Of a stretch of 45,100 bases of DNA, positions 10,612 through 31,045 are shown piece after piece. The number at the start of each line of letters is the position of its first letter. Within the stretch, counting starts at the first letter, position 1. This stretch comes from Christensenellaceae bacterium (lineage in GTDB: Bacteria > Bacillota > Clostridia > Christensenellales > Borkfalkiaceae): contig CAOMHR010000001.1 in assembly GCA_948482865.1 (NCBI GenBank), positions 1 through 45,100 on the forward strand. The letters are read 5' to 3'. The notes under the pieces were generated by a model that was not told where the DNA came from, ran no database searches, and worked only from the letters and a program-made list of their open reading frames with translations. The position numbers and the translations under genes are program-made.

Positions 10612-10625
10612 TGTTTTAGATGCTT

Positions 10626-10667: not shown

Positions 10668-10670
10668 TTA

Positions 10671-11279: not shown

Positions 11280-11406
11280 ATTTCGCACTCCTTAAAATAT
11301 CAACGCCCAACGCACCGATGCTGTTAAGCACAATAATTTTAACATAAATATATAATTTTTTGCAAGCGCACACGCAAAATTATTTTACTAAAAACTAAAT
11401 AATGCT

Positions 11407-11681: not shown

Positions 11682-11713
11682 GAACTTGTCCTTTATATTA
11701 TATGGTAATATAT

Positions 11714-13314: not shown

Positions 13315-13374
13315 TGCCGCGAGCGGCGCCGCCCAGACGGGCGCGTATTCCGTCAGCCAGCCTACGAACTTATC

Positions 13375-13683: not shown

Positions 13684-14233
13684 TGTTTTCTTCTCCTTTT
13701 AAATTTGTTATTTGTTCTTCCGTGAACCCGAATTCTTTTATAAAGTCTTCTTCCGTCCCGCCGCCGAGATACACGTTGTCCTTGTAGTCCTTATACGCAA
13801 ACCTTACAAGCGCGGCAACATTCCGCTCCGTGCGGGATATGCACCGTTCCGTGTCCTGTCTGTATTCCGCGAATGATTTTTTAAGCGCATACAACTCAGT
13901 CTTTAACTCAGCTATTTCTGGTGTCGCCGATAACGTCCCGTCCGCTTCTTTCAACAACAAAGGCTCTATCTTATAGACCTTTATAAGCACACCTTTCAGG
14001 TAATGCTTTACTTCCGCGTTCAGCTCTCCCGCTACAAGTCCGTCCAAGGTTAACGCACCGTCACGCGGCAACAGTTTTTTATACTGCTTACCGTTGTTCT
14101 CCGCTATAATATAGAACTCGCCGTTTACGTTCGGCAATTCAACTTTAAACTCTAAACTATTGTCCGTAACCATACAGGGCGATACGTCGCCGTACCGCCC
14201 TGTTCCGTTGGTTCTCAATTCTATCGTTCTCAT
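13676..14233 (-). CDS. Phage hypothetical protein (185 aa), tail-fibre-associated by position
   Basis: ORF track. Overlapping start/stop with its neighbours indicates operon coupling. No motif recognised. Confidence 0.5.
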   Translation of the reverse strand: MRTIELRTNGTGRYGDVSPCMVTDNSLEFKVELPNVNGEFYIIAENNGKQYKKLLPRDGALTLDGLVAGELNAEVKHYLKGVLIKVYKIEPLLLKEADGTLSATPEIAELKTELYALKKSFAEYRQDTERCISRTERNVAALVRFAYKDYKDNVYLGGGTEEDFIKEFGFTEEQITNLKGEENNE

Positions 14234-14571
14234 TCCAACACCGCCCTTGGTTCTTTGCCTTCAAGTATCCTGAGTTCGTTTATTATCTCCGCCGCACGCG
14301 CTTTCTTTGCTGAGTAGTCGCCGCGCACTATCCCAAAACTTTCCTGCTCTATATCTTCCTTAATTCCCAAAAGCTCCGCTTTAAGAGCTGAATGACGTTG
14401 CTTATTTATTTCATCTTCGTCCGTCAGGACCTTTTTAAGAATACGCCCTTTGACCCGCGTTTCAGTTTTACCGCAAACAGAAATTTCTTCCGTCGCTTCA
14501 TACACGGTCTCGTAATAGTAATCAGGCTTTTCAATTTCTTCCGTGTTTAAATTCATTTCGTTATTTTCCAT
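14230..14571 (-). CDS. Phage hypothetical protein (113 aa)
   Basis: ORF track. Acidic protein that overlaps the downstream gene by 4 nt. Confidence 0.5.
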   Translation of the reverse strand: MENNEMNLNTEEIEKPDYYYETVYEATEEISVCGKTETRVKGRILKKVLTDEDEINKQRHSALKAELLGIKEDIEQESFGIVRGDYSAKKARAAEIINELRILEGKEPRAVLE

Positions 14572-14573
14572 AA

Positions 14574-16268
14574 TTATAATCTCCTGTAAACGTGTAATAC
14601 CGTGCCGTTGCCGGTTGTAACCGTGCCTTTATCTTCCCAGTCGCCGCCGATTAATTCGGCGGGGTTTTCATTGGTTGCGGTTATAAATAACGGAACTTCC
14701 TTTTCCCGTACTATCCCGCCGTTATACCGTTCGTACGGATATGCGCCGCCGCCTTTCTGCACCATTAAATCAGACACTGTGAAATTTGCCGTAACGCCCG
14801 TTGTCCCGACAACTATTAAAGCGTATTCGTCCGTGGCAGTGAACGACGCCATCCAGCTCTGCGATAACTGTTCGTATGAATCGCCGTATTTGTTGTTGTA
14901 ATTATCGGGATAGGTACCGTTTATATCCGGACCTGACGACGGCAGTATATATATCCCGCCAAACCCTGCAATGACGTTATTGCCGCTTTTCGTGTAGGAA
15001 CCGGACCAGCTATATCTTTCACCCGGCGTTGTTTTGGCTACCGCCATAACTTTAAGGTTCAGCGACGTCGTAACCGACGCGAGAACCGGTTTAGCCAGAT
15101 TCAAGCCCTTATCCCGCTCTTCACGCAGCCACTGCTCGCCGCTTTGGTCAAGCGTATGTATAGGCTGGCTGGCTATAACTTTTTCCGTATACGGCGCAGA
15201 TAATTTATACTGCACGTACACCGGATTTTCCGCCAGCCATTCCCTGAATTCCTGCAAATTTATCTTATCGCTGTAAATTCGGATATTGCCGTTACTCTGA
15301 ACCGTTAAGTTGGGTATTGTAGACGTCCAGGAATTTGCCGCGGATGAGTAGAGATTTGACGTTATATCCTGCGTCGGCAAATGTATATTCTCGCAATCGT
15401 ACCACGCCAGCCCGCCGCCGCTCGGATAGCCGTTTCTCGTTCGGATATCCGCGTTGGTTATCTTCAAATATCCCGTTTGCCGCGTAACCGTAACGCTGCC
15501 GTCCCCGTTGTCCGACGCGCTGTCGTACGCGCCGAGATTGTAAAGGTTTTTAATTACCTTGAAATCGGTAGGGTGTCTGTGTAAACCGTCCGCATATGTG
15601 TTAGAATTTCCAATATCCGCTTCACCGTCCATAAGCGGTAACGCCGTGCTTTTCGGCGGTACTTCGTCAGGCGAAGGCTTGCCGCTGTCCGTCCAGCCGC
15701 TCTCTTCATAGGTCCAGATATTGCCGCCCGCTATATACGCGTATGAATGCAACACCGCCGTGTGATACGCCGATTTCAACGCTTCTGCGCTTGTGAACAC
15801 CCCGACAAACAACGTTAAATTCTTAATATCCTGCGACAGTACCGAAAGGTTTTCCAGTATCTGGTCATAAATATCCGCGCTCGGCTCGTCAGGCAGGATT
15901 TCGGGTACGCCGCGACCCACAGTGAAACTTGTCGCGCTCGAAGCCACAACTTTGCCCGCACCCGAGTAAAAGTAAAACTGCGCCGTGACCGTACCGTAAT
16001 ACTGCGTTATTTCATTCGGCAGCGAAAACTGCCAGCCCGCGTACGGTTTACCCGTCTCCTTGTTTATTGCGCCCGTTATCTCTGCCGCCTGAGTCATAAG
16101 ATAACGTTCCGTATACACGCCGTTCGGCAGTCTGAACGCCACCGCTACGTTAAGGTTTACTGCAAACGGCGCTATAAGATAAATGTTGTTCACGTCCGCC
16201 GAACCCTGATACACCGGCGACGGGTACGAGTTTATAACCGTCCCGTCATTGTCTGCAAAAAATATCAT
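14574..16268 (-). CDS. Putative tail fibre / receptor-binding or baseplate protein (564 aa)
   Basis: ORF track. Position distal to the large tail protein. Beta-rich, Gly/Asn/Thr/Tyr-rich C-terminal half. The N-terminus (MIFFADNDGTVINSYPSPVYQGSADVNNIYLIAPF) is reminiscent of baseplate upper protein N-domains. This is a weak by-eye call. Confidence 0.45.
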   Translation of the reverse strand: MIFFADNDGTVINSYPSPVYQGSADVNNIYLIAPFAVNLNVAVAFRLPNGVYTERYLMTQAAEITGAINKETGKPYAGWQFSLPNEITQYYGTVTAQFYFYSGAGKVVASSATSFTVGRGVPEILPDEPSADIYDQILENLSVLSQDIKNLTLFVGVFTSAEALKSAYHTAVLHSYAYIAGGNIWTYEESGWTDSGKPSPDEVPPKSTALPLMDGEADIGNSNTYADGLHRHPTDFKVIKNLYNLGAYDSASDNGDGSVTVTRQTGYLKITNADIRTRNGYPSGGGLAWYDCENIHLPTQDITSNLYSSAANSWTSTIPNLTVQSNGNIRIYSDKINLQEFREWLAENPVYVQYKLSAPYTEKVIASQPIHTLDQSGEQWLREERDKGLNLAKPVLASVTTSLNLKVMAVAKTTPGERYSWSGSYTKSGNNVIAGFGGIYILPSSGPDINGTYPDNYNNKYGDSYEQLSQSWMASFTATDEYALIVVGTTGVTANFTVSDLMVQKGGGAYPYERYNGGIVREKEVPLFITATNENPAELIGGDWEDKGTVTTGNGTVLHVYRRL

Positions 16269-16278
16269 ATTTATCTCC

Positions 16279-16560
16279 TTAATCCTTTGCGGGCTGGATG
16301 CCCGTTATTTTAATGTACTCTTCATACAGAGACTGTACGTGGTTGAGTTCGTCTGAAATCTTTTCTTTCGTTGCCAACTCCAACTCGTCCAGAAACGGCG
16401 ACAACTTTTCATAATCGTCCATTCCCGCACACTTGTCCCGCACTTCGTCTATAATCTTCAATTGCTGATTATAGCCTTCTACGGCTTCCGATTCTTTCTT
16501 CTCATTAGACATCAGCACTCCGAATAAATCATACAAGACTTTCTGTTGTTCTTCGCTCAT
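16279..16560 (-). CDS. Phage hypothetical protein (93 aa, acidic, helical)
   Basis: ORF track. Tightly packed between the tail genes. Confidence 0.5.
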   Translation of the reverse strand: MSEEQQKVLYDLFGVLMSNEKKESEAVEGYNQQLKIIDEVRDKCAGMDDYEKLSPFLDELELATKEKISDELNHVQSLYEEYIKITGIQPAKD

Positions 16561-16562
16561 TA

Positions 16563-19500
16563 TTATCTCCTTTCTTTCCAGACCGTTTTGTCAAAAATTT
16601 CACGCTTTTTGGTAAAATAAACCGGCGTGAACGCCTGTCCCGCCGTTACTTCTATATTCTGTCCTATAAGCAAATCACCGCCATAATACTGCGTTTGCTC
16701 ATACTTCTCTCCCGTTTCGTCTTCCACCGTTTCCGTTTTCGTGTACTGCGGCGTTACTATCGCCCAGCTCTTTCCGCTCGCAGGGAAGTTCTCCGCATTT
16801 AGCTCCCAACACCCGTCGGCTAAATCCCCGCTCTTCAACGCCGCCGACGGCAAGTCCGAAAGTTTTACGTCTTCAAACGCTTCCACGTGGTCCGTAAACT
16901 TGTTAAGCTCGGTGGGGAATACGTACAGCCGCGCTTCGGCAAGCCGCGCGTCCGTGCCGCGTACCGCGGGATTGTACGACGCCAATGCCGAACCTATTAT
17001 CATATTTTCAAGGTTGGTTACAAAGTCTATCTGGAAATTTATCTGCAACGCTTCGCGGTTGTCCTTACGCAATACGTACGGCGTTTGTCCTATGGTTGAC
17101 ACAAACCCCGACGACGCTGCGGGAACACTGCCGCCCGGCAGCTTTTCTCCCACTTGCTGATAATTCTCAGGCGTTATATCCGGTCCTTTCGGCTGTAAAT
17201 CAAAATGGTAATAATACACCCTGCCATAATAATCCGTGTAGCTGTAACTGTTCTGGAAATATCCGCTGACGTTACCTTCAAACGCATTTTCCACGTATTC
17301 CGACGTCGCGCCTGCCGAATAGTTATCCTGATACTTCCAGCTGAACGATATCGAGTTACCGAACGCAGAAGATATTACCGGCAGGTTTACAGCGCCGCCC
17401 GCGCTATTGCCCTGATAGGTTGTACCCCAGGCGCACACGTTTGTTATGCGCCCCAAACCCGATACAGGACTTTCAATCCCCTGGAAAAAGGTCAGTCCTA
17501 CCCAGAACAGGAAAGCGTCGTTTATAAGACAGTCCGTATCCGCCAATTCCTTTTCACCGATTACTATGTACTCGTGGTACAGCGTATTCCGTTCCACCGC
17601 CTGCGTCTGCGATATTTCCGAATACCGCTTGACGGATGATATGCCTATGTACGACGACAGCCTGTTGAAGTCCTTAGACAGCCCTATCGTGCATTTGATT
17701 ACTGTCGGCAGAAATTCAACCGCAACGGCGGATATGTAATAGTCCTTGTCGAACATCTGCCCTGCCTTGGGTATCTGGCTTAAATTAGACAAAAAGTATG
17801 TCAGTGACAGCTCTATATTGCCCAGCCTTGCCACCGCGCCCTTTAAATTCTCGCCGTAATATCGGCTCTCTATCACGTTCGACTGCTGGTTGTAAATTAA
17901 TGCGGCGGGACGGCTGAAGTCCTTATAATACGCCTTTGTCTGCCCCACTCGCGCGTTGTAGAACGGCGTATACGTTACGCGGAAAGCCATTGCCGGATAA
18001 TCTGTCGGAATTATTGCCGTCTTATTGCTTGCTTGGCTTATGATGTTTACGATTGCGTATTTTTCAAACGCTTGCAGCACTGGCTTTTCCAACTTAAAAT
18101 TAAGACCACCGATATTTTTACTGCCCTGAGCGTAATATATTCCGTACGCCTTGGAATAAGGCTGTGCATCAGAGTATGACTTTAACAGCGTATCATACAC
18201 CGACTTTTCAAACAGCCATTGCGTTATATCTAACGATTTCATTTCCCCGCCGTCCGCGTACACGTATTCCAGCTTGTCCACGCTGTATATCGGGTACTGC
18301 GTAGGGATTATCATATTACCTTCTTCGATTCGCACGTACATATTTTCCGTGCGCAGCGTCTTTGCGCCGTCCGCATACGGCTCTACCATCACCCCGCTGT
18401 ATTTATCTAACTGATTCACAAGGTTTTCCGCATTGCTGTCCAAATAAGATGTATAATTCTCAATAACGTGCTGTACGCTTTTAGTGATGTACGGCATATA
18501 TTTAATGTTGCTCTTATCCTGACTTGCGTACATATCGTAGCTTACTTCGTAATACCACTCGTCCCCGTCTTTCTTCGGCGTAAGGCGCGGCTCGCCGTGG
18601 ATTACCTTGCCTATTGCCTGCAAACATTCCCTTAACGTCTGTTTGGTGAACGACATTTCGGGCGAAAGTATCTTATTAAACCGCGCAGCCTGTCCCGCCC
18701 CGTCTTCACCTTCGGGGATTATCTTCCCATCCCCACTCATTCCGTTCAGCCTGAACCGCGGCTTTTCGCCCTTACGCAGCGGTTCCGCCAAATCCAGCGT
18801 GCGGTTTATCACGTCCGTTATTGTCCACTTTTTAAGGGGAACAGGGTTTTCAGTTGTTGCTATGGTGTAAGAGAAATCGTAATATGTAGTGCTACTAATT
18901 CCAGATGAACCAGTATAAGTAATTGTGTATGTACCTAACTGGTCAAGAATTAAAGTTTTTGTATAAGTATGTTTATCATCATATTCTTCTGTTGTCCCGT
19001 CTGGATAAGTAATCTTAATTTTATCTGGCTCGATACCATAATTAAATCCACCATTTAGCACGGTTACCGTGAGAATCTGTAATGAAGTCCCCAAAGGTAC
19101 CGGAGATTTATAATAATCATACATCCTTGTATGCTCATCACGTTGTGGTGCTAATGTTCCAATGGGGGAAACATACTCACCTATATCATCACCGTAAACA
19201 CGCATTACGTTTGTAAATGTCAAAGTATCAACGGCATAACATTCTGCGATTTTAGTCACTTCGATTAAATATAAATCGTGATTGTAATATCCAGAACCTA
19301 TGGGGGACTCTACCGCAGAATCGTTCGCAATAATATAACGCTTTGTTTGCTCCCTTACACGTTCAGATATTTTATGTACTCCCGTCTTCCAATAAATCTC
19401 GTTTGTAAGCTGTATTTCAACAGGCGTAAGCGGTTCAAAATTCTTCTTTTTAACGTGCCTTATTGCCAAATGACACTCGTCTAATCGCTCATCCAAAAAG

Positions 19501-19583
19501 TTGCCCCACTTTATTGGCATTACCGTGCGCGACGTCCTGTTTATGCCGTCTACATAAACGGCTGCTGAATTTAAAATAGCCAT
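16563..19583 (-). CDS. Large tail/baseplate structural protein (1006 aa), compositionally mosaic
   Basis: ORF track. AGGAG precedes ATG 19583. Size and position fit a distal-tail or tail-associated protein. The 5' approx 720 nt are AT-rich, unlike the rest of the gene. Confidence 0.55.
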   Translation of the reverse strand: MAILNSAAVYVDGINRTSRTVMPIKWGNFLDERLDECHLAIRHVKKKNFEPLTPVEIQLTNEIYWKTGVHKISERVREQTKRYIIANDSAVESPIGSGYYNHDLYLIEVTKIAECYAVDTLTFTNVMRVYGDDIGEYVSPIGTLAPQRDEHTRMYDYYKSPVPLGTSLQILTVTVLNGGFNYGIEPDKIKITYPDGTTEEYDDKHTYTKTLILDQLGTYTITYTGSSGISSTTYYDFSYTIATTENPVPLKKWTITDVINRTLDLAEPLRKGEKPRFRLNGMSGDGKIIPEGEDGAGQAARFNKILSPEMSFTKQTLRECLQAIGKVIHGEPRLTPKKDGDEWYYEVSYDMYASQDKSNIKYMPYITKSVQHVIENYTSYLDSNAENLVNQLDKYSGVMVEPYADGAKTLRTENMYVRIEEGNMIIPTQYPIYSVDKLEYVYADGGEMKSLDITQWLFEKSVYDTLLKSYSDAQPYSKAYGIYYAQGSKNIGGLNFKLEKPVLQAFEKYAIVNIISQASNKTAIIPTDYPAMAFRVTYTPFYNARVGQTKAYYKDFSRPAALIYNQQSNVIESRYYGENLKGAVARLGNIELSLTYFLSNLSQIPKAGQMFDKDYYISAVAVEFLPTVIKCTIGLSKDFNRLSSYIGISSVKRYSEISQTQAVERNTLYHEYIVIGEKELADTDCLINDAFLFWVGLTFFQGIESPVSGLGRITNVCAWGTTYQGNSAGGAVNLPVISSAFGNSISFSWKYQDNYSAGATSEYVENAFEGNVSGYFQNSYSYTDYYGRVYYYHFDLQPKGPDITPENYQQVGEKLPGGSVPAASSGFVSTIGQTPYVLRKDNREALQINFQIDFVTNLENMIIGSALASYNPAVRGTDARLAEARLYVFPTELNKFTDHVEAFEDVKLSDLPSAALKSGDLADGCWELNAENFPASGKSWAIVTPQYTKTETVEDETGEKYEQTQYYGGDLLIGQNIEVTAGQAFTPVYFTKKREIFDKTVWKERR

Positions 19584-19611
19584 ATTAAACTCCTATAAAA
19601 AAATTTTAATT

Positions 19612-19633
19612 AAAAAAGCACGGTTGCCCGTGC
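19612..19633 (-). terminator. Intrinsic terminator (minus-strand polarity) immediately upstream of the tail gene start
   Basis: Perfect stem GCACGG-TTGC-CCGTGC (19618-19633). On the minus strand it is followed by TTTTTT (complement of the A-run 19612-19617). Confidence 0.55.
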
Positions 19634-19642
19634 GTGATTTTA

Positions 19643-19671
19643 TTGCAATAGATTGCAATTTAAGTTATACT
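19643..19671 (+). promoter_or_regulatory. Promoter TTGCAA-N17-TATACT for the island membrane-protein gene, giving a leaderless mRNA
   Basis: TTGCAA 19643-19648 lies within the first of two ATTGCAAT palindromes (19642-19649, 19652-19659). TATACT is at 19666-19671. ATG 19679 is 7 nt after the -10 and there is no SD. Confidence 0.5.
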
Positions 19672-19678
19672 GTAAATT

Positions 19679-20335
19679 ATGGAAAAGAAAGCTTTTATTA
19701 TTCAAATTTGTTTGTGTTCACTATTACTAATTTTCTCCGTTGTAACTTTTGCATTTACTTTAAATTTTTGCTTGCCTATTATACAAAGATATATAGAAAC
19801 AACAAATTCTTCATTAGAATATCTTTCTTATATTAAAAAGAGCATTACCATTCATACAATTTACTGGGCAAGTTCTGGAATTGCCACTTTAATATTAATT
19901 GTGCAGTTAATTTATCAAATTACAATTTTTAAAAGATGTAGCACATTAAACAAAAATCAACAAATAACTATCTTTTCTTTTTTAAGTTTTACTTCCATTC
20001 TTTTTTTAGCAATATTTATAGCTGCTTCATATTACACTGCATTTACGAGCGACATTTTTAAAGGGGTATCCGACAAAACATTTATAAACAATGAATTGAA
20101 AGCTACATACCTTAGTATAGCTATTGCTGGATTATCACTAATAATTGTTGTATTTACAGCTCTATCTTTTATAGTAAGTTCTACCCAAAAAGGTAAAAAA
20201 CTACTTGAACAGCTACAAATTAAAAAAAGTTCTAATAATAAATCAAAAAAATTATCTAATACTGAACGATTAATAAAATTAGAATCAAACATTAAGGAGT
20301 TACAAGCCGAATTAGAAGAATTGAAAAAGGATTAA
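19679..20335 (+). CDS. Island protein D: 4-TM membrane protein with C-terminal coiled coil (218 aa)
   Basis: ORF track. Four hydrophobic helices, then a basic linker (KKSSNNKSKK) and ERLIKLESNIKELQAELEELKKD. It lies on the opposite strand to all flanking structural genes and is AT-rich. Confidence 0.7.
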   Translation: MEKKAFIIQICLCSLLLIFSVVTFAFTLNFCLPIIQRYIETTNSSLEYLSYIKKSITIHTIYWASSGIATLILIVQLIYQITIFKRCSTLNKNQQITIFSFLSFTSILFLAIFIAASYYTAFTSDIFKGVSDKTFINNELKATYLSIAIAGLSLIIVVFTALSFIVSSTQKGKKLLEQLQIKKSSNNKSKKLSNTERLIKLESNIKELQAELEELKKD

Positions 20336-20353
20336 CTTTTTTCTCCTTGTATT

Positions 20354-20383
20354 AAAAAAGCACCGATAACTCGGTGCTTTTTT
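20354..20383. terminator. Bidirectional intrinsic terminator between convergent island genes
   Basis: AAAAAA-AGCACCGA-TAAC-TCGGTGCT-TTTTTT. An 8-bp stem flanked by A6 and T6. Confidence 0.8.
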
Positions 20384-20416
20384 ATTTTTGGTTTATTTTG
20401 ATATAATTATATAACT

Positions 20417-20971
20417 TTAATTATAATAAGGGCAACTCTTACAAACTTCAGAAGGTTTTGGCGGTAAATCCAACTTTCTTCTAGCGTAATTGCCCAACAA
20501 TTCAATCGCTACTTTCCCTTTCTCCTTTAAGTCTTTTATTATCTCAATAGCTTTTTTGTTCTTAACTTTATATGTATAAGATATTTTTTTATTAAGTAAC
20601 GCCTGTCTAATTAGCAAAGCTAACTTACCCAACTTCTTATAATTCAAATTACTAATATTATAGTGATATTCTTCAAGTCCGATAATAGCTGTTTTCCCTT
20701 CTTCCGGTGAGTGTTCTAAATTAAATGACTGCTCAATCTCATCAAAAGGCAATAAGACAAACATTATTTTACTGATTCCTGACTCATAACCCGAATAAAT
20801 AGACGCTCCGAACGTATCAAGTTCTCTTAAGTCATCAACTCTCCATAAAGATAATTTATTTCCCTTAGTTTTCAAGTCCCCTATCGCATTAGCAGGAATC
20901 TCATCAAGTGGTATTTCATCTTTATCTTCATCCCAAAAACTTGAAACTATCGTACGAACCAAATACGCCAT
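20417..20971 (-). CDS. Island protein C (184 aa), no recognisable domain
   Basis: ORF track. Its ATG overlaps the stop of the upstream gene by 1 nt (ATGA). C-terminal ...CKSCPYYN. AT-rich. Confidence 0.7.
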   Translation of the reverse strand: MAYLVRTIVSSFWDEDKDEIPLDEIPANAIGDLKTKGNKLSLWRVDDLRELDTFGASIYSGYESGISKIMFVLLPFDEIEQSFNLEHSPEEGKTAIIGLEEYHYNISNLNYKKLGKLALLIRQALLNKKISYTYKVKNKKAIEIIKDLKEKGKVAIELLGNYARRKLDLPPKPSEVCKSCPYYN

Positions 20972-21600
20972 CAGGTATGTTCCTCAATAAATTCTTTCAA
21001 ATCTTCTCGAAGAAATTTATTACCGAGTTGTAAATTTTTTACTGAATTGATATCACTTATCTCATCCCACATTAATAAAGCGTTTAAAGCATACTCTTGA
21101 ACCTGTATGTTAGAAGACGAAAGTAATTCCAATATTAAATTTTCTTCATCAGCTGAAATATAAGCAAAGTCTTTTTGCGATAAAGCTAAAGCAATTGCGC
21201 ATTTAATGCTTATATTCTTTGATTTATTCAACTCATTAAGAAATAAGCTATAAGCATTTTCTTTTCGAAGTAAATATAGAAAATCAAAATACTTATACCA
21301 TTCACCGAACCCAATATCTTCATTATTAACCATAATAATGAAATTATTGAGCCAACTCTCAACTTTCTTCTTGCCCAAACCAGCAAATTCATTTAACTGT
21401 ATTGAAGAATCTTCTCCCATATAGTTAAAAGTATTGCCTATTTGAGCAAAATATTCATCATAAATATTTCCTAAATCATAATGCCTATAATAAGCCATTT
21501 GCTCTGTGGCTTGAATTTTTTGCTCAATATTATCTACCGGAATACTTCCCATTCCGCCAATAGTCAATACTCCCGCCAAAACAGTAGCTGTTGCACTCAT
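20971..21600 (-). CDS. Island protein B (209 aa), hydrophobic N-terminus and HEAT/ARM-like helical C-terminal half (weak call)
   Basis: ORF track. MSATATVLAGVLTIGGMGS hydrophobic start. The helical repeat-like region ...IKCAIALALSQ...ILELLSSSNIQVQEYALNALLMW is a weak by-eye call. Confidence 0.65.
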   Translation of the reverse strand: MSATATVLAGVLTIGGMGSIPVDNIEQKIQATEQMAYYRHYDLGNIYDEYFAQIGNTFNYMGEDSSIQLNEFAGLGKKKVESWLNNFIIMVNNEDIGFGEWYKYFDFLYLLRKENAYSLFLNELNKSKNISIKCAIALALSQKDFAYISADEENLILELLSSSNIQVQEYALNALLMWDEISDINSVKNLQLGNKFLREDLKEFIEEHT

Positions 21601-21613
21601 ATTTTTTACCTGA

Positions 21614-22333
21614 TTATTCTTTTATCAAATATTTTTCTCTATACTCACTACCTATCGAATTAAAAAATTCAATATCTTCTTTTGTAAATATTTTTTCTAT
21701 TCCAGGTTGAGTATTAAAATCATAAGAAATGATTAAGCCATCTTCTTCTACATTTTTAGATGAAATAAACTTTCCACGATTATAATCAATTATTTTATTT
21801 AATCTACATTTGAGTTTTTCGTTTTCTTCTTTATTTACTATACGAAAACGCCATTCGTCTGACTGAAGATCAAAATTGTCAGAAGAATGGATAAGTTTTT
21901 TCAATGCAGAATTAACACTTTCTTTTTCCGTATTAAAAAAATGACCATTCAAAGCTAATCTGTTAAATTTCAAATTCAATTTATCCTGAATTTCGTAAAT
22001 AATTTCAAGCGCCATTGAATTAAAATCTTTATATGTATTATCTTCAAAATCTAATTGTTCAATATGAATACGGCTTGTCCCAAAAAAAACATTTACTCTT
22101 TCTTTTTCATTTTTCAAAATAGGGCGAGTAACAATAGGCATAGGCGCACCTATAAATACACCGCCTTTTAATACATTATTTGGATTAATATTTATTTGCG
22201 GCGAATTTAGATCTTGAGTAGCGTTAATTTGTAACGAAAATTTATTTTTAATTTTTTCAAGTTTTGATACATCTTCAAAACTTACTGAATTAAAATTGCC
22301 AAATACGACAAATTGCCTTAATGCTTCTATCAC
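21614..22333 (-). CDS. Island protein A (239 aa), no recognisable domain
   Basis: ORF track. GTG start 22333 with AAGGG 8 nt upstream. 13 nt separate it from protein B. Confidence 0.65.
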   Translation of the reverse strand: MIEALRQFVVFGNFNSVSFEDVSKLEKIKNKFSLQINATQDLNSPQININPNNVLKGGVFIGAPMPIVTRPILKNEKERVNVFFGTSRIHIEQLDFEDNTYKDFNSMALEIIYEIQDKLNLKFNRLALNGHFFNTEKESVNSALKKLIHSSDNFDLQSDEWRFRIVNKEENEKLKCRLNKIIDYNRGKFISSKNVEEDGLIISYDFNTQPGIEKIFTKEDIEFFNSIGSEYREKYLIKE

Positions 22334-22355
22334 TTAATTAACCCTTTTTTATTTA

Positions 22356-22388
22356 ATTATATCATAAATTATAATACTTGCAAGTATT
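22356..22388 (-). promoter_or_regulatory. Promoter TTGCAA-N16-TATAAT for the three-gene island operon, -35 embedded in a 16-bp perfect palindrome
   Basis: Minus strand: TTGCAA (22383-22378), 16-nt spacer, TATAAT (22361-22356). The palindrome AATACTTGCAAGTATT spans 22373-22388. Confidence 0.5.
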
Positions 22389-22395
22389 TTTTTGA

Positions 22396-22416
22396 TTGTC
22401 AACTATTTTTTGCAAA
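22396..22416. repeat. 21-nt exact repeat shared with the cro promoter region (41770-41790)
   Basis: TTGTCAACTATTTTTTGCAAA occurs at both sites in the same orientation. It contains TTGACA (minus strand) and the palindrome TTTGCAAA. Confidence 0.9.
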
Positions 22417-22459
22417 AAAAATTGACATACGCACATTATTCTGAACCATATTTCAATTC

Positions 22460-22939
22460 CTACTGATTTGCGCCCCGTCTTCCTGTCGTGCCGGCGCGTA
22501 TGTTCTGCATACCGATAGAAACATTTTCAAGCGTATTCCTGGTATTGTATTGCTGAATGCGTTGCAAGAGTCCTATACCTTGGTTTACAGACGACCAAAC
22601 AACGCCAACAGCCGCCACGGGAAGATTACCGCTTACTGCACCAGCCAACAATTGCATACCCTGTCTGCCTACTTGCTGTAACCCCGAATAGACAGTTTGT
22701 AAACGTTGTTCATACTCTGTTGCACCAGTTTCAAGCGATACTTGCGAAATAGAATTACTTATTAAATTATCAGCAGTAGACATTATAGCTTTGTAAGAAA
22801 CGGCTTTGGCTAATACTTCAACCACTCCCATTGAAGACTGGTCAGCATTTGCCGTATTATCTTTTTCACTTGAACTCCCTGCCATAGCTTTTTTCCTTCT
22901 GGTAGGAAGTTCTATTTTTATAACGTACGGATTAGCCAT
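22460..22939 (-). CDS. Virion-associated protein (159 aa) with Gly/Ala-rich hydrophobic segment, function unknown
   Basis: ORF track. Contains ...LLAGAVSGNLPVAAVGVVWSSVNQGIGLL.... Ends with TAG at the island boundary. Confidence 0.5.
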   Translation of the reverse strand: MANPYVIKIELPTRRKKAMAGSSSEKDNTANADQSSMGVVEVLAKAVSYKAIMSTADNLISNSISQVSLETGATEYEQRLQTVYSGLQQVGRQGMQLLAGAVSGNLPVAAVGVVWSSVNQGIGLLQRIQQYNTRNTLENVSIGMQNIRAGTTGRRGANQ

Positions 22940-22940
22940 T

Positions 22941-24089
22941 TTACACCCCCTGTAATACGGTAAACTGTGCAGATGAATCTGATACAGTTACTTTTCTGTC
23001 TGTTACAAGTGTAACATAATATTTTTTAATCGCATCATCATATTCAAACGAGCGATTAGTTAGTGCAATTGTTTGCGCCCCGTTTCTAATCTGTGCCCCT
23101 ACACCGGAAATAAAAGTATTACATTCTTCGGACAATGTAAATGTAAGCGAAGTAATATCACTCTTGTCAAACTCAAATCTTATAACTTGAAAATATTCAG
23201 GAACATTTACAGTAACTGCAAAATCCATTATTTCAATTAATGAAACCGTAATCCCTGCTATATTTATCCCTTCCGCACTTGTATTAATCGTATTGTTCAT
23301 CATAAAGTATAATTTACTTGTAGTAGCTAATTGAATTTTAACAAAATGCGCTGTATTGGGTTCACCGTTTATAAGATAATTAAAAGTTTCACTTGTTGCT
23401 TTATCTGAATTTGCCGGAAATTCAAAGTCCAAAGAAAAGGCTGTTGTTGTCGCAACGTTTTTTGAAATCAATTCACCGGCAGTAACTTCACGGTCCAGCT
23501 GTGCTGCACGGCTTGTTCTCAGAGCCTGATACGGCACGGGTTCGCCGTCGAAGTAGATTTTGACGTCCTTGCTGTTTATGCCGTCCTGTATGAAATAGAC
23601 TTCGATATACACGTTAAAATCTACGGACTGACCGTACCTTGCGGCAATCTCCGCATTACCCGTTACCGCCGTACCCGCCTGAAATGCGACCGAGTACTTC
23701 GCGCCGCTGCCGTCGTAAAGCGTGTCCGCCCAAGCCTTTTGGAAATAACCGTTCAGCGCGTTTGTTATATAGGCAAGATACGGATACTGCCCGTCCTGTA
23801 TCTTCTGCAGTTCTTCCGCCGTCTGCGTAGCGTTTGTGCGCGGCGCCTGCACGGGTATTTTAAAATCGAGCGACAACCCGTTCACGCCCATTACAAGGTC
23901 TGTTGCGTCGTTTGCCGAAGTGCTTGTACGCAGGTTGCCGAGTATGTAATGCGTTATCACGTTCCCGTCACGTTCGGGCTTTTTGTATTCGCCTGCGTCC
24001 GCCCAGATTTTAAACTGTATCTCGGGGTTGCCAAGCGTCTTGTTCAAGCCGTTCTCAAAGTACTCTGCCAATTGTTTTACCGATATCAT
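22941..24089 (-). CDS. Putative major tail (tube-like) structural protein (382 aa)
   Basis: ORF track. Assigned by position immediately after the head-tail connector genes. No motif recognised. Confidence 0.4.
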   Translation of the reverse strand: MISVKQLAEYFENGLNKTLGNPEIQFKIWADAGEYKKPERDGNVITHYILGNLRTSTSANDATDLVMGVNGLSLDFKIPVQAPRTNATQTAEELQKIQDGQYPYLAYITNALNGYFQKAWADTLYDGSGAKYSVAFQAGTAVTGNAEIAARYGQSVDFNVYIEVYFIQDGINSKDVKIYFDGEPVPYQALRTSRAAQLDREVTAGELISKNVATTTAFSLDFEFPANSDKATSETFNYLINGEPNTAHFVKIQLATTSKLYFMMNNTINTSAEGINIAGITVSLIEIMDFAVTVNVPEYFQVIRFEFDKSDITSLTFTLSEECNTFISGVGAQIRNGAQTIALTNRSFEYDDAIKKYYVTLVTDRKVTVSDSSAQFTVLQGV

Positions 24090-24397
24090 TTAATTGTTCC
24101 TCCTAACTTATCGTTAAATCTTTCAATAAAAGTCTGTGCAAATCTGTCCCACCAGTCTAGGTTTGGGTTTTGTTTACCGTTCCACTTCGGCGATATCCAC
24201 GGCTCGTTCGTATAATACACGTACGGCGCGACTTTGGTATCTATATAAATCACTATCTCGTTGTCCGAGATTTTATACTGCAACGCGTTCCGTGCCATAT
24301 TGCCCGTGTCACGCGGCACAAGCTCGTTGCGCAGCTCTTCCACCGTTGACACCGCTGCATTTATTATCTGCTGTCTGTCCATCACGTCTCGCCCCAC
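24086..24397 (-). CDS. HK97 gp10-like tail-completion / head-tail joining protein
   Basis: ORF track. ...VPRDTGNMARNAL... resembles the gp10-family DTG motif. A coupled alternative start, ATG 24382 (TGATG overlap with the upstream stop), is at least as likely as GTG 24397. Confidence 0.45.
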   Translation of the reverse strand: MGRDVMDRQQIINAAVSTVEELRNELVPRDTGNMARNALQYKISDNEIVIYIDTKVAPYVYYTNEPWISPKWNGKQNPNLDWWDRFAQTFIERFNDKLGGTIK

Positions 24398-24771
24398 GGC
24401 TCGTCAATCGCGACAAGCCTTAATACGTATTGCGTGCCTACGGGAACAGGCAGAACCCTGAACGCCTGCTTCGGCGCGGACTGGTAATCCGTCATTTTCT
24501 GCTGTATGGCGTACCATTCCCCGTCCTGCAACCGCACGATACCGTCGCCCGCTTTAAACCTTAACTGGTCGTCAGTGCGTATCGCCGTTTCGCCCGCGCC
24601 GGTCTGTATATTCGCAAACAGCGTGCGCCACGTTTTCGTAGACGGGTCAACGTACTCATAATTAAACGGCTGCCCGCCCACGTCGGGACCGTCGGGGCGT
24701 TCGGGGTAATACGTACCCGAAAGCGTGAATTGCGTGTGCGGATTTAAAATATCCATAATATCGCGTATCAT
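24382..24771 (-). CDS. Head-tail connector/adaptor protein (129 aa from coupled start)
   Basis: The ORF-track frame is 24382..24810. ATG 24771 forms a TAATG overlap with the upstream stop. Assigned by position. Confidence 0.45.
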   Translation of the reverse strand: MIRDIMDILNPHTQFTLSGTYYPERPDGPDVGGQPFNYEYVDPSTKTWRTLFANIQTGAGETAIRTDDQLRFKAGDGIVRLQDGEWYAIQQKMTDYQSAPKQAFRVLPVPVGTQYVLRLVAIDEPWGET

Positions 24772-25214
24772 TAATACACCCCCGTATAAAGTATCGAATA
24801 CCCCAGACACGGCACAACGTCGCCGAGAACGCTCTGCGCGAGATAATCTATCGCCACCGCTCTCTCTTCGGGCTTTGTGGACAAGTACAGATTACCCACG
24901 TTAGCCACGTACACCGCCTGATATTCCATTGCCGTCTGGATTATCCGCCTTAGTTCCTGAACTGTTGCAATAAGGCAGTCCTGCGCCCTGTTATTGACGT
25001 TGTGTTGGTGGATGAACTGATAAACCATATCGCTGACCGTACGTGTAAAGCTCTTTATAGCGACTTCGGGATTTACAAGCGCGGTGTCAGACATTCTCGC
25101 ACGGATATTCAGACCCACGTTTTCCACAAGCGCCTTTTCAGTTAGCACGTAGCGGTTCGTTCTTTCGTCATAGTACAAATAATCGTCCGAGTAGGGACTT
25201 ATCCTGTTTTGCAT
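24771..25214 (-). CDS. Head-tail connector protein (147 aa)
   Basis: ORF track. AAGGAG precedes ATG 25214. It is the first gene after the capsid block. Confidence 0.45.
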   Translation of the reverse strand: MQNRISPYSDDYLYYDERTNRYVLTEKALVENVGLNIRARMSDTALVNPEVAIKSFTRTVSDMVYQFIHQHNVNNRAQDCLIATVQELRRIIQTAMEYQAVYVANVGNLYLSTKPEERAVAIDYLAQSVLGDVVPCLGYSILYTGVY

Positions 25215-25266
25215 TTATTTCTCCTTTCTGTGTTGACTTTTTCAGATTTCGGTGTATAATATAAAT

Positions 25267-25342
25267 AGAAGTGTTGCTTTTGACCCTACCAAGGTGTGCA
25301 TACCGAAGCGGGGCTCCCGTGCACGGGGGGCAACACTTTTTT
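25267..25342 (+). ncRNA. Candidate small structured RNA (about 75 nt) with its own promoter and terminator, antisense orientation in the head operon gap
   Basis: TTGACT (25233-25238)-N16-TATAAT (25255-25260). Closing stem AAGUGUUGC (25269-25277) / GCAACACUU (25330-25338) runs into a T6 tract (25337-25342). The GC hairpin CUCCCG-UGCA-CGGGGG is at 25314-25329. Confidence 0.4.
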
Positions 25343-25883
25343 ATTGTTTATTAAAAGGATTCAAATCATAAAGAGTACTACTTCCGTCTTGCCTTATCCC
25401 CACATTAAGTAGACCGGTATATGTATCTTCTCCAAGTCGGAACGAAACTTTGTAGTACGCAAATTTCTCAAATTTTTTATGTTCAACATCTTTGACGCTC
25501 TCCAATTCACCAGCCTTTATAAACTCTGCAAGATGCGGAGAAACGCGTAATTTAACTTCGATATCTTTATGTGTAATCTTATCTGCGCCAACACTTGAAA
25601 TAGTCACTTCACGTCCGTCTTGCGTTGCGTATTTTCCGCACAAATTATCCATAATATACCTATAAGCTATTTTTTGCCGCTCTTTCTGGCTTTTTGAAGC
25701 GCTTAATTGTTTTTGAATATCTGCATCCATATTGACTTTAACAACTCTTTTCGTTAAAGTCTTTTTTGTTGCATTTTTTATCGTCCCTAACTCATTCCTT
25801 GAATCGTATCCGCTTTTACCGCTGCCGTTTTTACCGGTAAACTTCCCGTCGTTATCGCGCGGGTGTTCTTCTTCCTTAAACAC
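25341..25883 (-). CDS. Phage protein with N-terminal EEHPRDNDGKF motif (180 aa), possible capsid-packaged protein
   Basis: The ORF-track frame 25341..26093 overlaps the capsid gene. GTG 25883 has AGGAG 8 nt upstream and gives MFKEEEHPRDNDGKFTGKNGSGKSGYDSRNELG.... It is a paralogue of the N-terminus of 33141..33485. Confidence 0.6.
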   Translation of the reverse strand: MFKEEEHPRDNDGKFTGKNGSGKSGYDSRNELGTIKNATKKTLTKRVVKVNMDADIQKQLSASKSQKERQKIAYRYIMDNLCGKYATQDGREVTISSVGADKITHKDIEVKLRVSPHLAEFIKAGELESVKDVEHKKFEKFAYYKVSFRLGEDTYTGLLNVGIRQDGSSTLYDLNPFNKQ

Positions 25884-25959
25884 TTTTGTTTCTCCTGTTC
25901 TTTTTAAATTGGTAAGGGGCTTGGTAAAGCCCAAACCCCTGTGAAAGCTGTTTATTGTT

Positions 25960-27630
25960 TTAACCGTTATTTCCGTCCTGTGCGGGAGTTTCGTCTTTTG
26001 ACTCACTGCCCGCGTCAGGCGCGGGGCTATTGGTCTTTGACGAAGTCCTGCTGCGTTTAGCCGTTGCCGCAGTAAGCGTAACAGAAGTTGCAAGCGTTGC
26101 CGTTGCCGTCTGGGTAAGCGTTATCTGCGAGCTGTTGGTCTGATACCCGTCGGCAGATACAAGCACGGTTGCTTCGCTTGCGCGGGGAAGCGTAAACGTA
26201 TAAGTACCGTCTTCGCGGTTAGCTACGGTAGCATACAAACCGCCTTCGCCGCGTACAACCACTTCCGCGTTATCAACCGCCGCGTCGCCCGTACCGTTTA
26301 CGGTAAGCGTTACTTCCGTAACGAGCGTGGGTGCGGTAACGCCTATTCTCTGCACGGTCTTTTCGTTGACGTCTGTCAAAGGAGCATTTGCAGATGCCTG
26401 ATAGCCTTCGATTATGCCTTCCATATTCGCAGGCGAGTTAATGCCGTTGAACTCGGTTACAGGGTTTTCGAAGTCTGCAAGATTGTCCGCGGTTTCGACC
26501 ACAAGCGCGATTGAAGAAGGACGGATAACTTCTACGCCCCAACCCCAGTCGTTGCGGATTATGTAGCCTATGGAAGTCGTAGGCGACTTGTCCACGTCCG
26601 TTACGGTAGCGCTCATACCGAACAGCGTACCGTCCGCGTTTGCGATATACGCGACGACTTTATTCCACTGTGCGTACTGGTCATTTGTAAGGTTGAGCGT
26701 TGCCGCCGCGGTATCGAACATTTCGTCGGGCAATACTTTGATGTAAATGCCCATATACTTGCCGTAGATATACGAGCCGAGCAATCTTTCGCCGCTGTCG
26801 TCCAGATATCCGTTTAACAGAATTTTCTGGGCTATATCGCTGTTTACGAGCGCGCCGTTCTTAATAGTCATAAGTTTGTTGAAGAAGCTCCAACGCATAA
26901 CGTATACGCTCTTGTTGCGGTCGTATGAGATAATACCTTCCTTATACGAACCGCGTACGTTCGACAGTGCCGAAGCAAGCGTGTTCATAATGCCCTGTAA
27001 ATACCCGTCGTCCGTATTATTAGGGTCGTAAGCGATTATGTTCGGGTTGCCGTTCTTTGACGCGTGGGAAAGCGCCGAGCCTATCTGTGCGGCAAGCACG
27101 TCGCCGTCCTGCAACAGCCCTACGGTTTTGGGTATGTACGAAGTATGCTGTCCGAGCAAATCAAGGTCCGCGCCTATCATACGCATATTTACGCGCGAGA
27201 CCTGCGCCGCTTCGTCGTACTCCTGCACAAACTTCATATCATAGCCGTCTGTCTGTAAGCCGTGGGGCAAGTTACGGTTAAACGGCTGGTTATTGCCGGG
27301 CGTTCCGTTGTTGCCGTCATCCGAAGGGCACAGTTTTGTCCCCAACGTCCTTTTAAGACGGGGCGGGAGCATTAACAGCGGGAACCTTAAAAATCCTACG
27401 TTCTCTGCTTCTGCGCCCACGCTCGTTACGCCCATACCGTCTACGAACGCACGTGACGCAAGGTTTACCGCTATCCATCTGTTCGCTAAACGTCTGTTGA
27501 CCAACACGTTACCGACAAGCGGATAATTGCCGCTGTGCGCCTCTACGTTGAAAGGCGCGTCTACATTTGCAACTGCCTGCAAATACATCTGGGAATCGGG
27601 GATTCCCGTTGAAATTAACATTTCTGCCAT
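25960..27630 (-). CDS. Putative major capsid protein with C-terminal Ig/CarboxypepD_reg-like extension and low-complexity tail (556 aa)
   Basis: ORF track. Assigned by position directly after the scaffold-like gene. The C-terminal approx 130 aa (VTLTVNGTGDAAVDNAEVVVRGEGGLYATVANREDGTYTFTLP...VSADGYQT) look like a beta-sandwich decoration domain. Confidence 0.55.
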   Translation of the reverse strand: MAEMLISTGIPDSQMYLQAVANVDAPFNVEAHSGNYPLVGNVLVNRRLANRWIAVNLASRAFVDGMGVTSVGAEAENVGFLRFPLLMLPPRLKRTLGTKLCPSDDGNNGTPGNNQPFNRNLPHGLQTDGYDMKFVQEYDEAAQVSRVNMRMIGADLDLLGQHTSYIPKTVGLLQDGDVLAAQIGSALSHASKNGNPNIIAYDPNNTDDGYLQGIMNTLASALSNVRGSYKEGIISYDRNKSVYVMRWSFFNKLMTIKNGALVNSDIAQKILLNGYLDDSGERLLGSYIYGKYMGIYIKVLPDEMFDTAAATLNLTNDQYAQWNKVVAYIANADGTLFGMSATVTDVDKSPTTSIGYIIRNDWGWGVEVIRPSSIALVVETADNLADFENPVTEFNGINSPANMEGIIEGYQASANAPLTDVNEKTVQRIGVTAPTLVTEVTLTVNGTGDAAVDNAEVVVRGEGGLYATVANREDGTYTFTLPRASEATVLVSADGYQTNSSQITLTQTATATLATSVTLTAATAKRSRTSSKTNSPAPDAGSESKDETPAQDGNNG

Positions 27631-27650
27631 TTTTTATGTTCCTCCTGAAA

Positions 27651-28160
27651 TTACATTATTTTGTGAATTTTTTTGGCTATTTCTTCTTTGGTAAGCTGTC
27701 TTTCGGGTACGCTTTTATCGTCGCCCTGAAACACTCCGTTACCGATTCCGTATGTTTCGTCCATACGCTTTGCGGCTTCGCTGTCTGCGTCCGCCGCTGC
27801 TTCCGCCTGCTTTTCAACGCCGTCAAGGAATTTCTCCATTCTGTCAAAAACGGACGACATGCGCTGTAACGCCGCGTCGAGCTTGGCTTCTTTACTTTCC
27901 TTTTCTTCCGCGCGTTCTTCGTCGGCTTTCTTAGCGCCTTCCGACTCGTCTACGCGGTCCTTTGCGTTCTGGGAATCTTCGTCCCCCGAACGCTTTTCCT
28001 GTTCGCCTACGCTTTCGTCAATACGGTCTTTTTCCGTCTGGCTGTCCGCGCCTTTTTCGGCAACGTCCTGTTTTGCTTTTTCAATTTCTTTTTCGTCTTC
28101 GGTCATTTCCGAATCCTCCTTATTTGATTTTTTCTTTTTGAAAAGATTAAAAAGTTTCAT
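27651..28160 (-). CDS. Putative scaffolding protein (169 aa, highly charged/helical)
   Basis: ORF track. Acidic, Lys/Glu/Asp-rich composition and location between the MuF-like and capsid genes. Confidence 0.5.
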   Translation of the reverse strand: MKLFNLFKKKKSNKEDSEMTEDEKEIEKAKQDVAEKGADSQTEKDRIDESVGEQEKRSGDEDSQNAKDRVDESEGAKKADEERAEEKESKEAKLDAALQRMSSVFDRMEKFLDGVEKQAEAAADADSEAAKRMDETYGIGNGVFQGDDKSVPERQLTKEEIAKKIHKIM

Positions 28161-28183
28161 AATTGCTCCTTTTAAAAGGCATT

Positions 28184-28210
28184 AAAAAAGCGGGGCTTAC
28201 ACTCCCGCTT
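28184..28210 (-). terminator. Intrinsic terminator inside the late operon (between the 66-aa gene and the scaffold gene)
   Basis: Minus strand: AAGCGGG-AGTGTAAGC-CCCGCTT followed by TTTT. The stem overlaps stop codon 28209-28211. Confidence 0.55.
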
Positions 28211-28409
28211 AGTCGTTTTTATTGAGTTCAAGCCTTGCCGAAAGCGTTTCGAAATATACGCACATTCCTTCACGCTGACGGATAAGCAAAGACTTCTGGT
28301 AATCGTCCAGTTCATTGAACTTATTGCTTTTTAAAAACGTATTCAGCTTTACAATCTTTTCTTTAAGCTGCGCCTGTTCTTCAACCATTCTCTGAACAAA
28401 TGCTTCCAT
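28209..28409 (-). CDS. Phage hypothetical protein (66 aa, helical)
   Basis: ORF track. AGGAGG precedes the ATG. Confidence 0.5.
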   Translation of the reverse strand: MEAFVQRMVEEQAQLKEKIVKLNTFLKSNKFNELDDYQKSLLIRQREGMCVYFETLSARLELNKND

Positions 28410-28419
28410 AACTGCCTCC

Positions 28420-31034: not shown

Positions 31035-31045
31035 TTCCGTCTCCT

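Follow-up and report, generated by a model that had tools for sequence, protein, structure and literature searches.

Why does a temperate phage carry, in the middle of its tail module, four genes that look foreign to it? The question is raised by positions 19584-22459 of a 45,100-nucleotide stretch of a Christensenellaceae genome (assembly GCA_948482865.1, contig CAOMHR010000001.1; the whole stretch is called the window below), where an AT-rich segment separates a 159-amino-acid (aa) late gene from the gene for a 1006-aa tail protein. Three of its genes, named D, C and B in the order of transcription, form an operon, and the fourth, gene A, is convergent with them (Table 1). An original prediction, made from the letters of the window, had described the segment as one self-regulated accessory island. 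From a comparison with related loci, we conclude with high confidence that it consists of two autonomous accessory units, the D-C-B cassette and gene A, which lie in a hotspot and are not tail components. We also lean, less firmly, towards the complete statement that these are two morons, that is, extra DNA of deviant G+C content with its own promoter and terminator (PMC3594210), in the tail-gene hotspot of a temperate phage, with a protective function for D-C-B and superinfection exclusion by A.

An AT-rich segment in the late operon of a prophage

The segment covers 2876 bp between the stop codon of the 159-aa gene (22460; g159) and the start codon of the 1006-aa tail gene (19583). Its G+C content is 28.0% (806/2876), against 47.0% on the tail side (11700-19583) and 44.7% on the head side (22460-41000), so that the compositional break claimed earlier is real, and the hand counts quoted for it proved exact (15/60 at 21001-21060, 30/60 at 18781-18840 and 34/60 at 26101-26160). 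G+C at third codon positions (GC3) ranges from 0.16 to 0.30 in the four genes of the region versus 0.35 to 0.60 in the adjoining structural genes. Open reading frames (ORFs) and hydropathy also agree with the gene content given before, namely a three-gene operon facing a protein with four transmembrane (TM) segments and a coiled coil. The prophage is bordered by tRNA-Ser(GCT) (11449-11539) and an integrase gene (43831-44865), and its late genes all lie on the minus strand, beginning with those for the terminase, the portal, minor capsid protein 2 and a 556-aa capsid-type protein, followed by further genes. It is a temperate phage in a Clostridia-type genome, beside tRNA-Ser.

Variable cargo at the 5′ end of the tail gene

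About 25 related loci were gathered with residues 1-141 of the tail protein as the probe. Homologs of g159 (28-51% identity) are present in all of them, immediately ahead of the variable stretch. About a dozen relatives (L044-47, L051/52, L054-56, L059-63) have the gene order g382-g159-tail, a contiguous tail gene and no D-C-B; these trio-less relatives still hold one low-G+C antisense gene, encoding a 2-TM or a lipobox protein, between the g159 homolog and the tail gene. Across the relatives as a whole, at least seven types of cargo were found between the g159 homolog and the body of the tail gene. The slot of L048 (7614-8717) and L057 is occupied by a trio of HigB-like, HTH_3 and SecB-like genes, the chaperone of which matches the PADLOC model PD-T4-9_C at 2.5e-16, and that of L066 (7449-8076) by a HigB/HigA-like pair alone. 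Other relatives carry a SocA/Panacea antitoxin with a partner gene, a Peptidase_M78 protease (ImmA/IrrE, CapP-like; 7e-16) together with a membrane protein, an LRR_5 lipoprotein, other lipoproteins, or several proteins without annotation. As far as sequence comparison can tell, the site is a family-wide cargo-swapping hotspot with conserved flanks and variable, unrelated cargo, including recognised defence and toxin-antitoxin (TA) genes. The neighbourhood search thus supports the earlier suggestion of a variable prophage/defence hotspot, the relatives carrying other conflict-type cargo at the site, and the contrary case that had been named beside it, a universally conserved tail-module synteny, does not describe these phages, since the trio is missing from about a dozen of them.

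The part of the tail gene that encodes the first 141 residues (the N-domain) was found in several states. In L009, L036, L048, L053, L058 and L066 it is a separate ORF of 143-144 aa upstream of the cargo, and the remaining tail protein, of 936-939 aa in L009 and L036, is encoded downstream; in L009, for example, the N-domain ORF lies at 9386-9817 and the tail body at 12303-15113. L037 (7411-7785 and 11044-11418) and L019 (6001-6177 and 7719-7895) have the N-domain coding sequence twice, once on either side of the cargo, as direct repeats with 96% DNA identity in L037 and 94% in L019. A remnant of the N-domain is kept in L060, and in the window only the downstream copy is left, fused to the tail gene (19161-19583). 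The simplest reading of these states is that recombination would bring in or swap cargo and, in doing so, duplicate the tail gene's 5′ end, one copy being lost later on either side. It is possible, and we propose it tentatively together with the immune-system reading of D-C-B given below, that this 5′ end with its duplicated N-domain serves as a recombination landing pad for the swapping of such systems.

Distribution of the D-C-B trio

A word-indexed homolog search was insensitive, returning three proteins for D and two for B, and the result improved only with a six-sequence profile. Relatives of D are always followed by a C homolog and then a B homolog. One layout, with proteins of about 219-239, 190-216 and 166-197 aa, is common to the seven B- or D-homolog neighbourhoods that were sampled (L009, L017, L021, L023, L026, L027-30 and L020), and it was found again in the loci fetched later (L031-35, L036-40 and L041-42). 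The G+C content of the trio is 26-38%, below that of its flanks at every locus.

The genomic settings of the trio are diverse. It is carried by phages related to that of the window (L009-16, L036-40 and L058) and by the L017 phage, whose flanking genes have no detectable similarity to the window phage. At L027-30 (1373-8745) it ends a small element with three large serine recombinase genes in a row, a PemK toxin gene and a gene for a sigma-70 region-4 protein; this element occupies varied chromosomal insertion sites. In a Clostridia metagenome-assembled genome (MAG; L041) the trio lies beside conjugation-type genes, between TraG/LRR/DUF2971/radical-SAM genes and leuS, in L021 between vsr and an IS3 transposase gene, in L042 near a SIR2 gene, in L031-35 on the chromosome between vanZ and a polysaccharide locus, and in L023 beside glycosyltransferase/polysaccharide genes. 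Prophages of Acinetobacter baumannii (Ab105-1phi, AbTJ) carry a divergent trio at their lysis-side end; the first two genes of that trio are so divergent that just the YD.NT region of D could be detected (hhalign E 6.5e-4).

In Acinetobacter phage Ab105-1phi (L020; KT588074.1, 38458-40396), and also in AbTJ and MD-2021a, the low-G+C genes encode proteins of 226, 215 and 197 aa and follow the lysis genes at the prophage end, the last gene being the B homolog. The 215-aa protein was considered as a C homolog, for which the alignment is suggestive only (hhalign E 0.02-0.035, low probability). At least 1000 A. baumannii contigs encode proteins of this trio, annotated as hypothetical on every one; a literature search by the accession numbers of the Acinetobacter homologs found nothing. 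Searches of plasmids with B retrieved only mislabelled A. baumannii chromosomes, pattern scans of IMG/VR for D and B gave no match, and a D profile scan found only three Clostridia MAGs.

D of L009 is 50% identical to D of the L017 phage versus 44% to D of the window, and the backbone of L009 is related to that of the window; the phylogeny of the cassette therefore departs from that of the phage backbone. Taken together, the varied settings, the low G+C content and the promoter and terminator that travel with the genes indicate that D-C-B is an autonomous, horizontally spread transcription unit and no tail component. This agrees with the earlier view of the genes as foreign to the tail module, given that they show no homology to tail, baseplate or lysis proteins, that about a dozen relatives lack the trio and that the trio also occurs outside phages.

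Gene A as a separate unit

Gene A was aligned with 11 antisense small membrane proteins encoded at the same site in relatives. An N-terminal MKK..IINILL helix and the last TM segment are common to the alignment, and the C-terminal ..LE.ELEELKK tail of A is common to a subset. A-type genes accompany D-C-B, toxin-antitoxin-chaperone (TAC)-like and protease cargo alike, and one stands alone in otherwise empty sites; in some relatives, a lipoprotein (lipobox) gene is found in place of the A-type gene. The alignment presents A as a separate moron, an enlarged four-TM member of a site-resident family of 2-TM proteins, and as an antisense low-G+C unit with a promoter-like site and a terminator it has the attributes of a small-membrane-protein prophage moron. 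The four genes therefore do not make up a single island, as had been supposed, but two independent units, because the A-type gene accompanies varied cargo and persists without D-C-B.

Transcription signals

The D-C-B promoter has the arrangement TTGCAA-16-TG-TATAAT, which also precedes the D homologs of L009, L036 and L023 and, as a variant, that of L017, at loci where the proteins are only 34-45% identical. We regard this minus-strand promoter as validated because it is conserved 5′ of homologous operons at other loci. Both promoter sites of the original prediction are present where it had placed them, but such matches are no commoner in the region than chance would give (17 vs 17.8 expected), and the site in front of gene A is putative. 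Terminator-like matches exceed chance (5 vs 1.2 expected).

A perfect palindrome of 16 bp (AATACTTGCAAGTATT, 22373-22388; in the repeat listing, AATACTTG/CAAGTATT at the same position) covers the −35 element of D-C-B, and a palindromic octamer, ATTGCAAT, occurs twice (19642-19649 and 19652-19659) over the promoter-like site of gene A. The dyad over the D-C-B promoter is not conserved in homologous loci, where the −35/−10 part alone is kept. The operator-like palindromes are thus present as described, but self-regulation through them was rejected, because homologous loci do not keep the dyads and none of the genes encodes a recognisable regulator. What stands of the earlier overall reading is an accessory, horizontally acquired insertion; its self-regulation and its unity do not.

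Both terminators that had been proposed correspond to hairpins at the expected places. The one between the convergent genes B and A (20353-20384) has a folding energy of −19.6 kcal/mol on either strand, with z about −7 versus shuffled sequence, and bidirectional hairpins also lie 3′ of B in L009 (11911-11940) and L036 (10547-10574). The minus-strand hairpin at 19618-19633 reaches −11.7 kcal/mol (z −3.9). No RNA family was found in a scan of the region with Rfam.

These two strong minus-strand terminators separate the upstream late genes from the essential tail genes (1006 aa onward), and late transcription would therefore have to be antiterminated or re-initiated. In lytic growth, it would read through both terminators to the tail genes.

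Proteins of the D-C-B operon

No model of Pfam, PADLOC or NCBIfam matches A, B, C or D, in line with the original statement that no named defence system could be recognised. The sole PHROG match among the four proteins is that of B to phrog_10743 (1.6e-12), the function of which is not annotated. Nothing credible came from searches of PDB sequences, whether with single proteins or with B, C and D profiles, and homologs of the trio are labelled 'hypothetical' throughout the source databases. A PADLOC scan of 88 B-family and 24 D-family members gave scattered single weak matches only, and no Pfam family emerged among the 88 B-family members; the scan used PADLOC-DB 2.0, which covers systems described up to 2023. 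Neither SecB nor HTH (helix-turn-helix) antitoxin nor toxin families were found in D, C or B with Pfam, PADLOC and NCBIfam, and searches of Pfam, PHROGs and NCBIfam linked none of A, B, C and D with a tail, baseplate, chaperone or lysis family. The stop codon of C and the start codon of B overlap by one base, a layout typical of translational coupling.

D has 25 homolog clusters, and its GTG start is confirmed by alignment with the N-termini of homologs. Its invariant residues include R6, R70, R88, R125, E160, N179, Y204-D205 and R232, a pattern that would suit the binding of nucleic acid or a phosphorylated ligand. The AlphaFold2 (AF2) model (predicted local distance difference test, pLDDT, 84.4) predicts two S1-H1-S2..S5-H2 repeats that form a pseudo-twofold beta-sheet saddle of TBP-like/helix-grip type. 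In a Foldseek search of PDB with this model, 18 of the top 19 matches were phosphagen kinases or McsB (E 6.6e-4 to 3e-2, probability 0.72-0.99); Bet v 1/PYL and TBP folds were also among the matches, and in BFVD the best match had E 1.5e-6 and a TM-score of 0.52, TBP being among the viral matches. The predicted repeats of D, placed in one antiparallel sheet backed by helices, recall both TBP-like/helix-grip saddles and the catalytic domain of arginine kinase/McsB; the Foldseek probability is above 0.9 for many phosphagen kinases and McsB, and several Arg plus Glu/Asp residues of D are invariant. D differs in having no counterpart of the N-terminal helical domain of phosphagen kinases and in a TM-score of 0.27-0.36. 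A 24-homolog D profile retrieved no kinase from PDB sequences, and a guanido phosphotransferase match in Pfam/NCBIfam was also absent. The candidate identification of D as a guanido kinase or McsB-like enzyme was consequently reduced to a resemblance at the level of fold, given the low TM-score and the profile search without a kinase.

In a nine-homolog alignment of C, the N-terminal half is variable and often opens with a hydrophobic stretch, and a conserved helical part of HEAT/Arm-like character makes up the C-terminal ~70 aa, with sub-threshold HEAT/Arm/UTP20 matches at residues 151-180. The hydrophobic stretch is found in most homologs and is absent from some (L027); in the window protein it is below the TM threshold, and D and B lack signal peptides and TM segments. 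Of the three proteins, B is the best conserved and the most widely distributed; an exhaustive HMMER search at E<=1e-3 places it in a family of 539 clusters (50% identity). W13, S41 and H103 are invariant across 88 diverse members, and the AF2 model (pLDDT 94.1) is alpha/beta, with no fold match in a Foldseek search of PDB (best E 0.9). P0069, a 404-aa protein with a C-terminal B domain, was considered as a C-B fusion that would prove an interaction; its alignment to C is suggestive only (hhalign E 0.02, low probability).

What the two units may do

We propose that D-C-B would be transcribed from the repressed prophage off its own sigma-70 extended −10 promoter; the combination of an own promoter with insulating terminators fits such expression, following the definition of morons (PMC3594210). 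D, C and B would form a cytoplasmic complex, with C as a helical-repeat scaffold, D as an Arg-rich beta-saddle that would bind nucleic acid or a phosphorylated ligand, and B, predicted to have a new alpha/beta fold with invariant Ser/His, as the executing activity. The complex would shield the lysogen, or the carrier element, from other phages or mobile elements in an abortive-infection or TA-like manner. By analogy with HK97 gp15, A would act at the membrane as a superinfection-exclusion protein. D-C-B may accordingly be named as a candidate for an undescribed, widespread three-component immune system, extending from gut Clostridia to A. baumannii, in which B would be the effector and D would sense or modify phage nucleic acid or protein; we put this forward with some reserve.

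Several points weigh against this proposal. The defence role is argued by association, from mobile elements and the cargo of the same slot, because no PADLOC 2.0, Pfam or NCBIfam model matches the proteins. What D, C and B are proposed to do is guessed from patterns of conservation; the resemblance of D to phosphagen kinases and McsB is weak (TM-score only 0.27-0.36, root-mean-square deviation >10 A, no sequence signal), and P0069, the possible C-B fusion, aligns with C only at hhalign E 0.02. Furthermore, the trio is frequent at this site within the phage family, in at least three sub-lineages, which leaves room for a phage-specific benefit.

What else could explain a cassette of this kind? 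It might be a tripartite addiction module, TA-like, that stabilises its carrier element and excludes no phage. D-C-B rides on many kinds of mobile element, its operon is compact, C and B overlap by one base, its promoter looks strong and constitutive, and relatives have genuine TA-type modules in the same slot (the HigB-like/HTH/SecB-like trio and the SocA_Panacea pair). However, D, C and B resemble no known toxin, antitoxin or SecB chaperone and are similar and fairly large (184-239 aa) compared with typical small antitoxins, and TA and abortive-infection defence can coincide, PD-T4-9/CmdTAC being both (PMC9519451). We consider pure addiction unlikely. A lysogenic-conversion function, in which the cargo would alter the host surface or physiology (for example, polysaccharide or envelope) for a benefit in the gut and not against phages, could draw on the large glycosyltransferase/polysaccharide genes beside the trio in two independent non-phage contexts (L023; L031-35), on the hydrophobic start of most C homologs and the membrane protein A, and on the probable receptor-recognition part of the tail that the unit adjoins in phages. 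It is quite improbable, though, in view of D and B without signal peptide or TM segment, a C N-terminus that stays under the TM threshold and is absent in some homologs (L027), no glycosyltransferase, acyltransferase or transporter signature in Pfam, and other trio contexts that are unrelated to surface polysaccharide.

Two further explanations would tie the cassette to the growth of the phage itself. Counter-defence or takeover cargo, serving lytic growth or element transfer, for instance by inhibiting host immunity, would be co-transcribed by late read-through, as D-C-B lies inside the late operon; its carriers are diverse mobile elements that all face host immunity, and D-C-B has no likeness to known defence proteins. 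Yet the own sigma-70-type promoter and the insulating terminators suit expression from a repressed prophage, the trio is also found in apparently non-mobile chromosomal settings (L031-35), and the slot in relatives holds TA- or defence-type genes and not known anti-defence genes, so that we view this explanation as decidedly improbable. The idea of a lineage-specific accessory or assembly role in the tail for D, C and B, for example as chaperones of the large tail protein, with an incidental low G+C content, is largely refuted by the comparative data and has hardly any credit with us. Trios in phages do always lie directly upstream of, or inside, a large tail-type gene (837-1073 aa), and several sub-lineages of the family have them at this site. 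The same tail genes nevertheless occur with no trio in about a dozen related phages, others have TA modules or a protease in its place, and the trio is found without phage genes nearby, has its own promoter and terminators and shows no similarity to tail, baseplate or chaperone families.

Relation to known systems and significance

Morons, with HK97 gene 15 as the type example, are reportedly treated in Juhala et al. 2000 and Cumby et al. 2012. Like HK97 gene 15, the units of the window are extra DNA relative to related phages, differ in G+C content, have a promoter and terminator and lie in a tail operon, and product A, like gp15, is small and of inner-membrane type. The membrane moron gp15 of the HK97 tail operon excludes superinfecting phages (PMC3594210). 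The window differs in that two morons stand back to back, one of them a three-gene, widely travelling module, in that A has no sequence relation to gp15/YebO and in that the units are known from sequence-level signals. Membrane proteins and lipoproteins that mediate superinfection exclusion are encoded near tail or receptor-binding genes in many phages, as with T5 Llp, phi80/T1 Cor, Streptococcus thermophilus Ltp, lactococcal Sie2009 and P22 SieA. The A family shares with them its small size, its membrane location (as a lipoprotein in some relatives), an antisense position beside a large tail gene, low G+C content and variability, whereas A itself has four TM segments and a coiled-coil tail and is likened to them without an established sequence similarity. 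Further reading on such proteins is available (PMC11436027, PMC10883804).

The hotspots of P2 prophages and P4 satellites hold antiviral systems (Rousset et al. 2022, PMC9122126). There, as here, conserved phage flanks frame a slot whose content varies from phage to phage and includes TA and defence-type genes. The present slot differs in belonging to a Clostridia-associated phage family, in its position at, or within, the 5′ end of a tail gene, in an N-domain that is split off or duplicated as direct repeats of about 0.4 kb around the cargo, and in window cargo that matches no known system. PD-T4-9 corresponds to CmdTAC, a tripartite toxin-antitoxin-chaperone anti-phage system (Vassallo et al. 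2022, PMC9519451; bioRxiv 10.1101/2024.02.24.581848). With this system D-C-B shares the form of a compact mobile three-gene operon, and a TAC-like trio occupies the identical slot in L048/L057, but D, C and B have no detectable TAC sequence or domain and their sizes differ.

New in this work are the content of D-C-B and the unusual architecture of the hotspot; morons in a prophage hotspot are the known kind to which they belong. Most of the defence hotspots mapped to date are those of E. coli phages and satellites. If our proposal is true, temperate phages of Clostridia MAGs and metagenomes contain a new cargo hotspot that can be mined for further systems, and D-C-B is a clonable candidate immune module of about 1.9 kb, three genes with a native promoter, that is annotated nowhere. 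Its divergent version, common in clinical A. baumannii prophages, would then have a bearing on phage therapy. The split, duplicated and fused states of the N-domain would likewise offer a readable series for the entry and exit of cargo in an essential operon without destruction of that operon.

Annotated features and neighbouring genes

Table 1. Features of the accessory region and its two flanking genes (positions in the window).
Feature	Position	Strand	Description
g159, 159-aa late/virion-module gene	22460..22939	-	ORF; left border of the hotspot
D-C-B operon promoter region	22334..22459	-	-35 TTGCAA (22383-22378), 16-nt spacer, TG-extended -10 TATAAT (22361-22356)
Gene D, 239 aa	21614..22333	-	ORF, GTG start; first gene of the cassette
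Gene C, 209 aa	20971..21600	-	ORF; stop overlaps the B start by one base
Gene B, 184 aa	20417..20971	-	ORF; most conserved, most widespread component
Bidirectional intrinsic terminator between convergent genes B and A	20353..20384	both	14-bp stem with A-run and T-run
Gene A, 218 aa	19679..20335	+	ORF; four hydrophobic segments (TM), C-terminal coiled-coil-like tail ..KLESNIKELQAELEELKKD
Promoter-like site of gene A	19642..19671	+	TTGCAA-17-TATACT (19643-19671), only 9/12 match; putative
Intrinsic terminator directly upstream of the tail gene start	19618..19633	-	GCACGG-GCAA-CCGUGC, then UUUUUU
1006-aa tail protein gene, downstream flank	16563..19583	-	ORF; first 141 residues (19161-19583) are the detachable N-domain

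DNA searches of GenBank phages with the island and 24 kb of backbone gave no match, tblastn with the tail protein one weak match only, and a comparison of the 1006-aa tail protein with PDB sequences nothing credible.

Elsewhere in the prophage, the 3′ third of the 382-aa gene (23001-23500) falls to 33.6% G+C, the rest of the gene having 48-53%, and may be a mosaic or swapped C-terminal domain. A gene for an LPD3-domain protein (25341-26093) overlaps the end of the 556-aa capsid-type gene, and in L019 a second short ORF (5357-5731), just ahead of the hotspot, has the same HPRD.NG.F motif as this protein. The integrase end of the prophage (41000-45100) is very AT-rich (23-39% G+C), and a 423-aa protein with a C-terminal GIY-YIG nuclease domain is encoded there at 42471-43742, adjoining the integrase gene (43831-44865). 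Outside the prophage, on the tRNA side (4726-11327), lie genes for a 1513-aa GLUG/DUF5640 protein, a YitT/DUF2179 membrane protein and a GDSL lipase. These host genes are consistent with a Clostridia-type genome, and a copy is present in the MAG GCA_949935875.1.

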